Source of the DNA: Escherichia phage E26
Sequence record: MN655998.1
Direction: 5' to 3' (one strand)
DNA length: 64,000 bases
This document shows positions 39,058 through 43,806 of this stretch, piece by piece; position 1 is the first letter of the stretch; each line of letters starts with the position of its first letter. Below the pieces are notes generated by a model. The model searched no databases. It saw only the letters and a program-made list of their open reading frames with translations, and was not told the DNA's origin. A program made the position numbers and the translations under genes.

Positions 39058-41301
39058 TTACAGCTTGCAAGATGAGCACTCGCTAGCGTCTTCCGTACCA
39101 TCTGCACCATCACGCACGTTAGCGTAATACAGTGTCTTGAGGCCGTAATATTGAGCAAACAACATATCATCTAATACATCAGCAATATCGACTTTACCAG
39201 TCTTATAAGTGCTTGGATCGTAGGATGTGTTGGAACTAATCGCCTGATCTACAAACTTCTGCATGATCGCTGCCAGTGTCAGATAAGGCTTGTTACCTTT
39301 CTTGATCAGTGTCCAAAGCAGGTCAATAACATCAGCATTATTCTCTACGTTCGGAATAACCTGATTAAATTGCCCTTCTTTCGATCCTTTAACCGATACA
39401 ATCCCGCGAGGCGGTTCAATACCGTTTGTGCTGTTAGACACCTGAGAAGACGACTCACAAGGCATCAGAGCCGAAAGCGTACTGTTACGAATGCCATATT
39501 TTTTCAGGTCTTCGCGCAGTTCTTCCCAATCCATCTCATACACCGGATCAACCAGTTCATCTACTGTCTTTTTGTACCAGTCAATAGGAAGTTCACCGCG
39601 ACCATAACGTGTTTCGTGCATCAGTTCGCAAGCGCCCTTCTCTTTAGCCAGTTGCACACTAGCTTTAATCAGAGCATATTGCAAGCGTTCAAACGTTTTA
39701 TGCGTAAACTCGTTAGCGTCTTCATATGTGAAGAAATTATCCGCAAGATATGATGCAAAGTTAGTCACGCCAACACCCAGAGAGCGACGTTTTTTGGCTG
39801 TCAGAGCTTGTTCTACTGGATAATCCTGGTAATCTAACAAGTTGTCAAGCGCACGCACCATAACCATAGCAATGCGTTCTACTTCTTCCATGTTTTCGAT
39901 ATCGAAATTACCTAAAACATATGCTGCCAAAGTGCATAGACTGATCTCTGAATCATCACGACCCATCGGTTTTGTCGGCAGAGCAATTTCACAACACAGG
40001 TTAGATTGTTTAATCGGTGCTACATTACGAATAAACGCCCCGTGATTGTTCATGTTGTCTGTGAACGCTGGATAGATTCGACCAGTGTTAAAACGTTCAA
40101 TTGCCACCGCTAAAAACAGGTCTTCGGCTTTAACACGAGTTTTACGAACACTCGGATCTTTTTCCAGTTTTTCGTAAAGCTGACGGAATCCTTCCTCATC
40201 TCGGAAGTACAGATCCCACAACAAGCCACCCGCAACATCTGGACTAAACAGAGTAATGTAATCCCGTTTAAGGAATCGCTCTACCATCAGGTTATTAATC
40301 TGTACGCCGTAATCAAGATGACGAATGCGGTTATCTTCTACCCCTTTGTTGTTCTTCAACACAATAAGACTTTCAAACTCTAAATGCCACATTGGGTAAT
40401 AGAGAGTCGCCGCTCCGCCACGAATACCGCCTTGCGAGCATGACTTAACAGCAGTCTGAAAATGTTTCCAGAATGGGATAACGCCAGTATGACGAACTTC
40501 ACCATGTCCGATCTTAGATCCTTCCGCGCGAATCATACCAGCATTGATACCGATACCAGCACGCTTACTAATATACTTGATGATTGCATTTGCTGTTTCA
40601 TTGATGCCCTGCAATGAGTCATCACTTTCAATCACCACACACGAACTAAATTGTCGTGTTGGAGTACGCACACCCGCCATAATCGGAGTAGGCAGAGAAA
40701 TTTGCTTATTCGCAACAGCATTATAAAAATCAATCACATGTTCAAGTCGATTTTCTGTCTCTTCTTGATGTAAGCACATACCGATCAGCATATAAGCAAA
40801 TTGCGGTGTTTCAATGATTTTCTTAGTGCTGCGATCCTGAACAAGATATTTCTCTTTTAACTGCATCGCACCAGCGTAGGTCATTTTAAAATCAAGTTTA
40901 TGATCGATGAATTTCTCCAGATATTCCACTTCTTCACGGGAATACTTTTGCAGAATTTCGCGATCATATTTTCCGGTTGCAATATTACGCTCAATATGGC
41001 TATAAAAATCAATCGGTTGGAATTGACCGTATACTGATTTACGAAGCGCGAACATTGCAAGGTTACTTGCTACATATTGATAATCAGGTGTTTCTACAGT
41101 AATGTTATCTGCGGCGACCTTAATCAATACTTTCTGGATATCATTGGTAGACATACCTTCTGTCAGAAGTGGTTCAACCATATCAAACAATTCATATGGA
41201 TCAACGTTATGACCTTCGGCTGCCGCTTCCAGAATTTTCATTACTTTTTCTTTTTCAAACGGAACAGTCAGACCGGAAGACTTAACAACATTTTTAATCA
41301 T
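39058..41301 (-). CDS. nrdA: ribonucleotide reductase large subunit
   Basis: 747 aa; ATP-cone N-terminus, class Ia R1 catalytic motifs, C-terminal CSSCKL. Confidence 0.92.
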   Translation of the reverse strand: MIKNVVKSSGLTVPFEKEKVMKILEAAAEGHNVDPYELFDMVEPLLTEGMSTNDIQKVLIKVAADNITVETPDYQYVASNLAMFALRKSVYGQFQPIDFYSHIERNIATGKYDREILQKYSREEVEYLEKFIDHKLDFKMTYAGAMQLKEKYLVQDRSTKKIIETPQFAYMLIGMCLHQEETENRLEHVIDFYNAVANKQISLPTPIMAGVRTPTRQFSSCVVIESDDSLQGINETANAIIKYISKRAGIGINAGMIRAEGSKIGHGEVRHTGVIPFWKHFQTAVKSCSQGGIRGGAATLYYPMWHLEFESLIVLKNNKGVEDNRIRHLDYGVQINNLMVERFLKRDYITLFSPDVAGGLLWDLYFRDEEGFRQLYEKLEKDPSVRKTRVKAEDLFLAVAIERFNTGRIYPAFTDNMNNHGAFIRNVAPIKQSNLCCEIALPTKPMGRDDSEISLCTLAAYVLGNFDIENMEEVERIAMVMVRALDNLLDYQDYPVEQALTAKKRRSLGVGVTNFASYLADNFFTYEDANEFTHKTFERLQYALIKASVQLAKEKGACELMHETRYGRGELPIDWYKKTVDELVDPVYEMDWEELREDLKKYGIRNSTLSALMPCESSSQVSNSTNGIEPPRGIVSVKGSKEGQFNQVIPNVENNADVIDLLWTLIKKGNKPYLTLAAIMQKFVDQAISSNTSYDPSTYKTGKVDIADVLDDMLFAQYYGLKTLYYANVRDGADGTEDASECSSCKL

Positions 41302-41312
41302 ATTACCTCACT

Positions 41313-41615
41313 TCATATATCAAGCGTATTTTCTGGAGTATCGCCGAAAACTCTATTAACGAGATCCGCCAATACTTCACCGTGGCATTTCTTAGGGTAG
41401 CAAGTACAACCTAAGCGCATATGTCTTAATACTTCTAAATGCGCTCGTGTTATCTCACCATTTCGAATCTTATTATACAACCACTCTTTGTATAATGCAA
41501 TAGCTTTCTCGCGTCCGTATTCTTTGGCGGTGTATGGATTTCCCCACATAGTACCACGCTGAATATTAACATCAAAATCGCTATTGTACTTGTTTACAAC
41601 GCGGCATATTTTCAT
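41313..41615 (-). CDS. DUF4326-like protein
   Basis: 100 aa; N-terminal pattern KIxxVVNK...FDVNIQRGTMWGNPY. Confidence 0.45.
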   Translation of the reverse strand: MKICRVVNKYNSDFDVNIQRGTMWGNPYTAKEYGREKAIALYKEWLYNKIRNGEITRAHLEVLRHMRLGCTCYPKKCHGEVLADLVNRVFGDTPENTLDI

Positions 41616-41650
41616 TTGATACTCCTGGCGGGGATTTCTCCCCGCCTTTG

Positions 41651-42871
41651 TTAGACTGCCATTTGAGCGGTGATCGCTGGATGGCTTTGATAGTTGTGAA
41701 TTTTAAAGTCTTTCGGAGTTTTTGTCAATACCTCCTCTAAAGATTTAAATTCCGGCAACTCAATTGTTGGTTTATCAAACGGAACACGGTTTAATTGCTC
41801 CATAACTTGATCAAAATGGTTTTTGTAAATGTGAGTATCTCCACCAGAGAAAATCAGTTCTCCTACCTCAAGATCACACATTTTCGCTATGATGTGAGTT
41901 AACAGCGCATAGCTGGCGACGTTAAAGGGCAAGCCCAAAAAGCTGTCTACGCTTCGCTGAAACCACATACAAGACAGTTTACCTTCATTGACGTAGAATT
42001 GCACGAAAGGATGACATACACCTAATACAGCATTATGTGTTCCTTGTACGTTCCATGAGTCAATAATGATCCGGCGATCCGTTGGATTGTTTTTAATTTG
42101 TTCAATCACGTTTTGTAACTGGTCTTCCCAAATCTTCGGGCGATAGACATATTCTTCATCGTCTTTAGTGCTTGATGTGTCTACGTCCATACTAACAAAC
42201 ATCGTGGTATCCGGTGCTAAAATGTCGCCACCCAGATAATCACTATCAAGCAGATAATCGAAATAACCACTATCTACCCATTCCTGGAATCCCCACAAGC
42301 AATATGCATCATTAACAAAATTAGATTGAGTCTTCCAGTGGTCTGCTACCAGAATACAATCAAACTCTTCATAAATCATACCACGCCAGATAGCACATAA
42401 ACGGTCTTCTGTTTCATTGGTTGGCGTAAAGTCTTCTACCCACGGGTGTTTAAATGTATGTGTATATTTGCTCTTAACACGCTTAATTTTGATCTCACCG
42501 TGTGGATGAATCGGTTTGCGTCGCCATGCCATGCCATACATATTCCCAACATTATAACCATTGAATCGCAAAGGATTCTTTTCTTTCATATCAAGACAGT
42601 TGCCGCGCCAAATGTCGAAGGCTTCTTCGTCAAACTTACCGCGTGTAATTTCCTGTAAGCGACGGCGGTCAAGTGATCCCTCCATAAACCATAGCAATTC
42701 GCCAATTACAGAGGCTGTAGCCATCTTTTTAGTGGTAAGTAAGGGGAAACCCTTGCTTAAGTCAATTCGCATTTCTGTACCGAATTTAGAGAGCGTACCT
42801 ACCCCAGTTCGGTCGTCACGAGGCCAACCATTATCAAGAACATCACGCAATAGTTTCAAATATTCTTTCAT
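41651..42871 (-). CDS. td: thymidylate synthase with large in-frame insertion
   Basis: 406 aa versus about 286 in T4 Td; conserved ThyA blocks flank an extra segment of about 115 aa. Confidence 0.85.
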   Translation of the reverse strand: MKEYLKLLRDVLDNGWPRDDRTGVGTLSKFGTEMRIDLSKGFPLLTTKKMATASVIGELLWFMEGSLDRRRLQEITRGKFDEEAFDIWRGNCLDMKEKNPLRFNGYNVGNMYGMAWRRKPIHPHGEIKIKRVKSKYTHTFKHPWVEDFTPTNETEDRLCAIWRGMIYEEFDCILVADHWKTQSNFVNDAYCLWGFQEWVDSGYFDYLLDSDYLGGDILAPDTTMFVSMDVDTSSTKDDEEYVYRPKIWEDQLQNVIEQIKNNPTDRRIIIDSWNVQGTHNAVLGVCHPFVQFYVNEGKLSCMWFQRSVDSFLGLPFNVASYALLTHIIAKMCDLEVGELIFSGGDTHIYKNHFDQVMEQLNRVPFDKPTIELPEFKSLEEVLTKTPKDFKIHNYQSHPAITAQMAV

Positions 42872-43205
42872 CCCACATCACCTTTTTCTTGTTGATTGCT
42901 TTCTTACGCAGTTTTGCTACTGTCTCGTCAATATCGATAAAGACAACGCCACGGTCGAATACAGTTGCAGGTCTTGAGATATCGCTATTTTCTTGCACAG
43001 GAAGCCATGATGCGCTCGCTTCATCATAGAGATATTGTAAACCGTAATAATCTACGGCTACTGCGTAGTTTTCACTGGTAGCTGACCATAATTGAATAAT
43101 ACCGACTTTCATTATTGTTCCCGTCCGCAATGTAAGCACCGGACTACCAGCAAACATCAAAGATTCACCACAATGTTTGCACTCATAATCTGTCAGAATT
43201 TTCAT
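42843..43205 (-). CDS. hypothetical protein
   Basis: ORF track 120 aa; N-terminal CKHCG. Confidence 0.5.
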   Translation of the reverse strand: MKILTDYECKHCGESLMFAGSPVLTLRTGTIMKVGIIQLWSATSENYAVAVDYYGLQYLYDEASASWLPVQENSDISRPATVFDRGVVFIDIDETVAKLRKKAINKKKVMWDERIFETIA

Positions 43206-43206
43206 G

Positions 43207-43806
43207 TTACGCCTTCTTACGTTCTAAAATTTGTTCGCTGATCAGGTAATCATCAAGGAAGTAATTATGTTCTTCTTTTGTTGCAAAGTCAAAATATAAT
43301 TCCTGAATCATTTCCTTAGAGATACCAACATCATATTCAAATGGATCGTTGATCCCTGAACGTTGAACATACGTTAACACAATACGGTCCGCAAAGTCAA
43401 CTGCTTTTTCAATCAGGGAAGGTCCACCGATAACGCTTACCATACCTTGCAATTTCTCTATGACTTCCAATAAATCCTTCAAACCACCATCATTAGTAAT
43501 CGCGGTATACACATCAGGATGTTCGCCGTTTTTTGCTTTCGGTGCTGGCTTACTGGTATCGGTGCTAACAACCACATTCACACGACCTTCCAGTGCTTTA
43601 GGGAGACTTTCAAAGGTATTACGTCCCATTACAACCGCCGCAAGATCAACATCTCCCATAGTGCGCATTTTAAAGTTTTCCATGTCCTTTTTGATTGGAC
43701 GTCCCCACGGTAAGCCGCCTTTAAAACCAAACGCCCAATTTTCATCCGACATTTTAGTGTCACCAATCGCAAATACACATTGAATCATAATATAATCTCC
43801 TGTCAA
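43207..43806 (-). CDS. frd: dihydrofolate reductase
   Basis: 199 aa; DHFR motifs FAIGD, GLPWGRP, VIGGPSL; start may be the internal Met at 43788. Confidence 0.82.
   Translation of the reverse strand: MTGDYIMIQCVFAIGDTKMSDENWAFGFKGGLPWGRPIKKDMENFKMRTMGDVDLAAVVMGRNTFESLPKALEGRVNVVVSTDTSKPAPKAKNGEHPDVYTAITNDGGLKDLLEVIEKLQGMVSVIGGPSLIEKAVDFADRIVLTYVQRSGINDPFEYDVGISKEMIQELYFDFATKEEHNYFLDDYLISEQILERKKA

Follow-up and report, generated by a model that had tools for sequence, protein, structure and literature searches.

The td gene of Escherichia phage E26 was analysed in a window of 64,000 nucleotides (nt), the whole stretch taken from sequence record MN655998.1, which is a segment of a Krischvirus genome of the RB49/Phi1-like type. 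The gene stands in a T4-type order, with frd (43207-43806), td, an open reading frame (ORF) of the DUF4326 family and nrdA (39058-41301). As the preliminary description of this DNA had it, td is a stop-free ORF of 406 codons; it encodes a thymidylate synthase (ThyA) that carries a large in-frame insert, the subject of this work. The Pfam model PF00303 covers residues 2-406 of the protein with model positions 1-266 of 266 (E = 2.3e-84, 283 bits for a cut-off of 24.3), and phmmer against Protein Data Bank (PDB) sequences matches E. coli ThyA in two stretches (E about 1e-68), Td residues 1-82 corresponding to ThyA residues 1-82 and residues 250-406 to 110-264. All positions of ThyA that take part in catalysis or in binding of deoxyuridine monophosphate (E. 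coli C146, R21, R126'/R127', R166, N177, H207 and Y209) are kept: R21, R266/R267, C286-H287, R306-S307-D309, N317, H347 and Y349 of Td are invariant or near-invariant in a 56-sequence alignment. Judged by its family model and its catalytic residues, the td product is a complete ThyA. The long td gene is shared by 58 phages, all of them RB49/Phi1/JSE-like Krischvirus, at 88-97.5% nucleotide identity to the td gene of the window, and the insert is found in every one of the 58 Krischvirus records of the phage collection.

The insert was placed by an alignment of the window Td, 18 other long thymidylate synthases and E. coli ThyA; the phmmer search of the PDB independently confirmed the E. coli part of it. 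The extra sequence forms one block of 129-131 residues where E. coli ThyA has 7 (PTPDGRH), a net gain of about 122 residues, and sits between the G..YG.QWR motif (GNMYGMAWR, residues 109-117) and DQL (residues 250-252). The preliminary description had reported an in-frame insertion of about 115 residues at 42136-42520. The single site holds, the position agrees with the insert as delimited here (42125-42517), and every ThyA motif it quoted at the two ends is present; the size has to be corrected to the net gain given above, plus a small extension of about 10 residues further upstream. The spacing of about 140 residues that it gave between GNMYGMAWRR and NPTDRRIII is 143 residues (the first motif ends at residue 118, the next starts at residue 262), as against about 20 in E. 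coli. Apart from the small upstream extension, alignment to the ThyA references thus places the extra length in one block. An extension of the same type accompanies the insert in most insert-bearing thymidylate synthases, and the YVYRPKIW.DQL junction is conserved across them. The insert is indeed Trp-rich, with 6 Trp in 131 residues, and contains 25 Asp or Glu and 13 Lys or Arg. W162 and W179 are near-invariant, and W44 and W61 in insert numbering are invariant in the alignments of inserts. The features of the gene are listed in Table 1.

Table 1. Features of the td gene in the window, in the direction of translation
Feature	Position	Strand	Basis
td, thymidylate synthase including the insert, 406 residues + stop	41651..42871	-	ORF; PF00303 over its full length; PDB ThyA matches
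N-terminal ThyA core, residues 1-118, ending in GNMYGMAWRR	42518..42871	-	residues 1-82 align to E. coli ThyA 1-82; GNMYGMAWR corresponds to E. coli GPVYGKQWR
Upstream extension GNCLDMKEKNPLRFNGYN, residues 90-107, about 10 residues longer than E. coli	42551..42604	-	translation and alignment
Insert, residues 119-249, 131 residues, at the hairpin tip (E. coli PTPDGRH)	42125..42517	-	alignment, phmmer, hhalign
Ascending strand of the predicted β-hairpin stalk RKPIHPHGEIKIK, residues 118-130	42482..42520	-	AlphaFold2 strand 118-130
Trp-rich helical module ETEDRLCAIWRGMIYEEFDCILVADHWKTQSNFVNDAYCLWGFQEWVD, residues 153-200	42272..42415	-	AlphaFold2 helices and alignments
Degenerate two-strand motif LLDSDY...DTTMFVSMDVD, residues 207-231	42179..42253	-	translation, motif table, AlphaFold2 strands
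Descending strand of the predicted stalk YVYRPKIWED, residues 241-250, rejoining the ThyA core at DQL	42122..42151	-	AlphaFold2 strand 241-250
C-terminal ThyA core, residues 250-406 + stop, with catalytic Cys286	41651..42124	-	aligns to E. coli ThyA 110-264

The fold of the whole Td was predicted with AlphaFold2 from the 56-sequence alignment, with a mean predicted local distance difference test score (pLDDT) of 93.3 and a predicted template modelling score of 0.91. Within this model the insert region has a pLDDT of 76-98 per 10-residue block, and the insert modelled alone adopts the same fold (pLDDT 90.9). A long two-strand stalk, made of strands 118-130 and 241-250, prolongs the native hairpin, and between its strands four helices (153-171, 177-180, 182-189 and 195-200) are followed by two short strands (206-209 and 224-227). 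In this model the inserted sequence would be held away from the ThyA core on its stalk, and the thymidylate synthase would presumably stay active with it in place.

A search with full-length Td retrieved thymidylate synthases of unusual length (401-613 residues). With the insert alone, a word-indexed protein search gave no match, and an exhaustive HMMER (phmmer) search of 1.84 billion representatives gave 11 proteins, 10 of which are insert-bearing thymidylate synthases. The remaining one, P0121, was set aside: this 867-residue metagenomic 'protein' is made of about 13 tandem copies of a 60-residue unit, is most likely a translated DNA repeat, and scores with the insert (E = 7e-12) through a short Tyr/Cys/Leu-rich stretch. 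In all insert-bearing thymidylate synthases found, the extra sequence occupies the same site. The window insert alone matches the long-insert enzymes at E = 7e-11 to 5e-4, with 36-59% identity over 47-85 residues, and the long inserts, of 240-283 residues, hold it as their central part and add an N-terminal β-rich module and a C-terminal module. T4-like phages with the frd-td-nrdA-nrdB context are among the carriers of long inserts at this site.

The long inserts lead to a much wider family. They match phrog_2081, labelled 'HNH endonuclease', at E = 2e-16 to 2e-35, and tblastn with one of them found 972 phage records, mostly free-standing genes labelled HNH or homing endonuclease, often several per genome. 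The free-standing proteins are 178-250 residues long, and phrog_2081 matches them over their whole length (E = 1e-35 to 6e-57). They share the N-terminal β module of the long inserts (..TGY....vKD...PSveGvGYLG) in the pattern ..TGY....v......vKD...PSv.GvGylG, and a DNA-binding domain of the AP2 or I-HmuI NUMOD-like type forms the C-terminal tail of some of them. Such genes lie between conserved phage genes: CDS0123 of Acinetobacter phage Ab7 adjoins the gene for a DNA polymerase exonuclease subunit, g045 of Yersinia phage fPS-54-ocr lies between a packaging gene and the large terminase, and SM033_00293 of Vibrio phage vB_VpaM_sm033 is another free-standing member. When compared with hhalign, a profile of seven short inserts aligned with a profile of six free-standing proteins at 94.7% probability (E = 6e-8, 81 columns). 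The Trp-rich helical module is homologous to the segment 'Y..W..M..RCYN...Y...V..W.nFsNF' of the free-standing family, most of the RCYN...Y loop being missing from the insert. Because of these profile and sequence matches, the insert appears as a trimmed relative of a widespread phage family whose architecture and placement are those of homing endonucleases; on this evidence it belongs to the phrog_2081-type family as a degenerate relative and not as an intact member. A structure search of BFVD brought up further thymidylate synthases with an insert, along with unnamed phage proteins of which some carry a homing-endonuclease or NUMOD-like label; these matches are consistent with an endonuclease-like family but add no function. 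The preliminary description had suggested a novel inserted domain. A separate domain it is, according to the AlphaFold2 prediction; novel it is not, as it has homologues both at the same ThyA site and in the free-standing phage family, and its probable origin in a mobile element and its decay go beyond what had been foreseen.

We refer to this family as endonuclease-like, as its assignment to the HNH enzymes is unproven. The 'HNH' label stems from PHROGs and GenBank annotation only. The residues invariant in six free-standing proteins are W, R, D-K-D, Y, C and N, and the canonical histidine is absent. In HNH enzymes a His that closes strand 1 serves as the general base, and an Asn or His of the next helix binds metal; the family instead has D-K-D and a conserved Asn, and the window insert D-S-D and Asp. 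PacI (PDB 3m7k), an atypical HNH enzyme, scored below the usual confidence range at 9% identity and was not recovered by Foldseek, whose search of the PDB returned nothing; we treat it as a lead and not as an assignment. The smallest free-standing members (178 residues) are little more than the modules shared with the td inserts; therefore, if these proteins are nucleases, their active site would lie within the shared region.

The Krischvirus copy has lost much of what the family conserves. In a set of 27 inserts, all 13 of at least 243 residues retain D-K-D, as do two of 193-196 residues, and all those of at most 175 residues have lost it. Compared with the family pattern LDKD...Y...C.F.P...N, the window insert has Ser for K, Thr for C and Asp for N; among the family-invariant residues W and D-S-D are present, and R, K, Y, C and N are absent, as are the RC/VC cysteines, the N-terminal β module and the C-terminal module. 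The Krischvirus insert has a net charge of -12 and an isoelectric point (pI) of 4.7, which makes DNA binding unlikely; inserts of at least 193 residues are basic (pI 8.2-9.5). Short inserts diverge faster than the enzyme core (54% identity against 85%), and long inserts are about as well conserved as the core (50-59% against 50-53%). The length of the insert is still drifting within Krischvirus, since the inserts of RB49, KFS-EC, 011D4 and ECD7 (L004, L008-L010) have four extra residues (SEYN) at Td residues 171-173 (about 42353-42361) that are absent from the window, Phi1, JSE, LF73P4 and GEC-3S types. In full-length members of the family the RCYN...Y loop, mostly lost from these inserts, lies at this spot. 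T4-like metagenomic phages that share the frd-td-nrdA-nrdB context carry either a 247-residue insert (P0008) or a short one (P0006), and reduction therefore occurred within the T4-like phages.

Evidence of mobility comes from the long inserts. The thymidylate synthase P0017, which bears a 283-residue insert, has a core 85% identical to that of the insert-less P0065 and about 44% identical to the window core. The genes of P0017 and P0065 lie in syntenic contigs (DUF2201 ... dihydrofolate reductase-thymidylate synthase ... epimerase) of about 75% nucleotide identity. Because the insert-less relatives of P0017 share a conserved 27-residue hairpin, the insert-less state is ancestral there and the insert a later gain. 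Insert and core lineages are also discordant, some cores of 67-69% identity carrying inserts of only 28% identity. The clearest case is that of Asteriusvirus, where td is empty in PBECO4 (L021; 930 nt, 309 residues) and in about 17 others among the relatives listed, and is filled by two different inserts in UE-S1 (L022; 1554 nt, 517 residues) and ph0011 (L002:2644-4284; 1641 nt, 546 residues). The first 274 nt of the UE-S1 td gene share 97% identity with PBECO4, and the 3' 255 nt of the UE-S1 and ph0011 genes are 87-90% identical to PBECO4. In the filled alleles the centre of the gene has given way to the insert and, on its flanks, to about 300 nt of td coding sequence of foreign origin, and the segment of the upstream extension lies inside this foreign tract. 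Such a sequence pattern is that expected of break-induced gene conversion with co-conversion of flanking markers. Empty and filled alleles with exchanged flanks were thus seen for the long inserts and not in Krischvirus, where all records are filled. The Asteriusvirus phages are cultured E. coli phages and could serve as an experimental system for homing.

Homology, site, polymorphism, decay and fold are computed; what the following scenario says of nuclease activity, of homing, of the absence of splicing and of a present role is inferred. We consider it likely that the insert is what remains of a homing-endonuclease-like element, fixed, reduced in size and probably without catalytic activity, set in frame at the tip of the td hairpin without RNA or protein splicing. 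An endonuclease-like element would have landed, in frame, in the part of td that encodes the tip of a surface hairpin; with the hairpin turned into a stalk, the enzyme could tolerate the extra domain and splicing was not needed. The long forms would act, or have acted, as nucleases on td alleles that lack the element, which would spread as the double-strand breaks are repaired, with co-conversion. Once fixed in the Krischvirus lineage, the element would have lost its nuclease features and DNA-binding modules, shrinking to a compact acidic domain that selection keeps foldable. Its persistence may have several reasons: precise deletion may not be easily available, a misfolded internal domain might harm an enzyme that the phage apparently needs, an occupied site may be immune to cutting by active relatives, or the remnant may have gained a new role. 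A bolder form of this scenario, to which we give slightly less than an even chance, is that the long td inserts (UE-S1, ph0011, phiKp_21 and T4-like metagenomic phages) act as a 'spliceless intein', a type of selfish element not described before: a homing endonuclease that exists only as an internal domain of a working Td, cuts empty alleles during co-infection and co-converts their flanks, the Krischvirus insert being its fossil, kept by immunity to re-invasion and by structural integration.

Several points weigh against the remnant scenario. Nuclease activity has been demonstrated for no member of the family, inserted or free-standing, and ordinary recombination without a nuclease could also yield mosaic td genes. 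No curated HNH model of Pfam or NCBIfam matches the insert, the long inserts or the free-standing relatives; NCBIfam with the insert and the free-standing relatives (E≤1) and Pfam with the long inserts (E≤1) gave no matches at all. The insert alone likewise found nothing in Pfam at E≤10, and its match to phrog_2081 was marginal (E = 0.038). The family profile found chance matches only among PDB sequences, with no solved structure recognized, and the absence of splicing is argued from sequence alone. The ratio of non-synonymous to synonymous substitution rates (dN/dS) of the insert, 0.08-0.31 by the Nei-Gojobori method in eight Krischvirus td genes, rests on small counts (3-13 changes per class per pair) from pairs that are not independent, and purifying selection together with a confident fold would also suit an acquired function.

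This last point leads to the alternative of an exapted functional domain, in which the acidic insert would dock Td to partners in the T4-type complex for deoxynucleoside triphosphate synthesis, regulate the enzyme or act as a decoy. It overlaps with the remnant scenario and differs from it on present function only. Besides the low dN/dS and the high-confidence fold, it can draw on the retention of the insert throughout the Krischvirus records and in more distant T4-like relatives with cores only 62-67% identical, on the motifs DAYCLWG.QE.VD and APDT..F that are invariant among short inserts, and on the consistent shift of charge to acidic. We nevertheless hold it to be rather unlikely, as the short inserts evolve faster than the core, their length drifts by the 4-residue indel between the RB49 and window types, no partner or activity is known, and selection against misfolding of an internal domain would give identical signals. 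That the window Td still contains an active homing endonuclease is very unlikely: the homology to an endonuclease-labelled family and the confident predicted fold would speak for it, but the invariant K, C and N have become S, T and D, the RC/VC cysteines are gone, both the N-terminal β module and the C-terminal, DNA-binding-type module are deleted, the charge is strongly negative, and, with every Krischvirus record filled, there is no empty target within the genus.

The insert might also be an ordinary lineage-specific expansion of a ThyA loop, unrelated to mobile elements. The ThyA region in which it lies is known to vary in length between lineages, and the insert does sit in a surface hairpin. 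However, the L. casei insert lies upstream of G..YG.QWR and the window insert downstream of it, for which reason an L. casei-type small-domain insert was rejected, and neither homology to free-standing phage proteins nor empty and filled alleles within one genus fit a simple loop expansion, which we regard as extremely unlikely. Finally, td is a classic host of mobile introns (T4 td/I-TevI) and homing endonucleases also ride in inteins, which brings up an intein, or a group I intron that keeps the frame open. The junctions WRR|KPIH and KIWE|DQLQ lack intein residues, with K119 at the start in place of Cys, Ser or Ala, and E249|D250 at the end in place of His-Asn followed by Cys, Ser or Thr. 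No Hint splicing domain or other intein model was found by Pfam in the insert (E≤10), nor a Hint domain in the long inserts (E≤1), and the predicted fold consists of helices and a hairpin, carried by a stalk that runs on from the host hairpin; an intein was therefore rejected. A group I or II intron was rejected as well: Rfam gave no intron or other RNA family at E≤1 on either strand of 41000-43500, and the frame is open and conserved as protein, with dN/dS below 1. In the other frames no ORF of at least 40 codons lies wholly inside 42125-42517; two alternative-frame ORFs, of 41 codons (42436-42561, minus strand) and 70 codons (42446-42658, plus strand), touch only the upstream end of the insert. 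The chance that the insert is an intein or such an intron is close to negligible, in line with the preliminary description, which had noted that the insert lacks intein boundary residues and had held an intron to be unlikely. The insert apparently stays unspliced in mature Td.

Among known systems, the closest parallel is the ShiLan domain of actinobacteriophage DNA methylases, an insertion that can be read in frame and is not spliced (Arsenault, Gosselin & Gogarten 2025; PMC11855218; PMC9957025). The ShiLan insertion contains an HNH endonuclease gene in another frame; read in the frame of the host, it yields a hairpin without features, and the methylase host is dispensable (PMC11855218). The two share a phage enzyme as host, the lack of intein or intron features, a predicted looping off the host fold, a link to HNH-type endonucleases and a disjoint, homing-like distribution. 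They differ in that the endonuclease-like module of the td insert lies in the host frame as an internal domain, that the host is a thymidylate synthase, and that the window copy is fixed and decayed and not actively spreading. A hidden endonuclease gene of the ShiLan type was rejected for td, as the endonuclease-like sequence lies in the td frame itself.

The free-standing proteins of phrog_2081/953/374 share with the insert the Trp-rich helical and LDKD...N modules, and with the long td inserts the N-terminal β module as well, but they are separate genes with AP2 or I-HmuI NUMOD-like tails, whereas the window copy is internal and has neither the end modules nor K, C and N. Homing endonucleases borne by inteins resemble the td insert in being nuclease-like domains inside a conserved host enzyme, at one conserved site, that spread between alleles. 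The td insert differs from them in having no Hint domain and no splice-junction residues, and should therefore remain in the mature protein. The T4 td intron with I-TevI involves the same host gene and phage group and is likewise a mobile element exploiting conserved td sequence, but it is removed as RNA and encodes a GIY-YIG enzyme, and no intron-like RNA was found at the window td. Its position differs as well, the T4 intron lying further downstream in the gene, behind about codon 183 of T4 td. The 50-residue insert of L. casei ThyA and those of eukaryotic enzymes are also tolerated surface insertions in a variable part of ThyA, but they are much shorter and have no relatives outside ThyA.

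In the literature searched, which did not cover the RB49 genome paper, we found neither the td insert nor any endonuclease-like insertion in a thymidylate synthase described; a review of T4 mobile elements and a survey of jumbo phages do not mention a td insertion. We rate the td insert as homing-endonuclease-derived mobile DNA of a known sort in an unusual in-frame, spliceless mode, here as a fossil. Homing endonuclease genes are generally taken to persist in essential genes only within self-splicing introns or inteins, or else to sit between genes. In td, an endonuclease-like module apparently resides, unspliced and in the host frame, inside a core enzyme of nucleotide metabolism, tolerated because it lands on a surface hairpin. 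Phage collections show several stages of its life cycle, from empty sites through two full-length inserts with foreign flanks in one genus to shortened acidic remnants fixed throughout another. The system thus bears on how selfish DNA becomes a permanent protein domain, on the tolerance of enzymes to large insertions and on whether an occupied site is protected from re-invasion. The free-standing family has no curated model and its catalytic mechanism is unproven.

The analysis also corrects annotation, since the database entry of some insert-bearing thymidylate synthases reads 'hypothetical protein' or 'HNH endonuclease'. The former label is carried in GenBank by the long-insert enzymes of Klebsiella phage phiKp_21 (L020:4001-5554) and ph0011, the latter by the insert-bearing ThyA-like protein of Vibrio phage D181 (L003:1060-2493). 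In the clade formed by this D181 protein with P0125, P0126, P0128 and P0130, (E/S)TRSG.V replaces the phosphate-binding motif DRTG.GT and other core changes occur; the substrate or the activity of these ThyA-like proteins may differ from that of an ordinary thymidylate synthase.

Within Krischvirus, td residues 257-355 (41806-42102) of JSE, GEC-3S, LF73P4 and KFS-EC (L005-L008) are only 50-78% nucleotide-identical to the window/RB49 type, and the rest of td, insert included, is about 93-100% identical. The patch begins seven codons past the insert and, in the sequence comparison, looks like a recombination or gene-conversion tract abutting its 3' end. A recent spread of the insert, as might be read from its low synonymous divergence relative to the 'core', was rejected, because the divergence is local to residues 257-355 and the N-terminal core is conserved like the insert.

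Two small ORFs flank td on the same strand. The DUF4326 ORF, of 100 codons (41313-41615; E = 6.5e-23), lies between td and nrdA, and the td-DUF4326-nrdA arrangement recurs in a distant T4-like metagenomic contig (L017). On the other side, a 120-codon ORF (42843-43205) with a CxxC pair (CKHCGES) and no Pfam match overlaps the start of td by 29 nt; in relatives a shorter hypothetical protein is annotated at the equivalent place, with an identical overlap with td.

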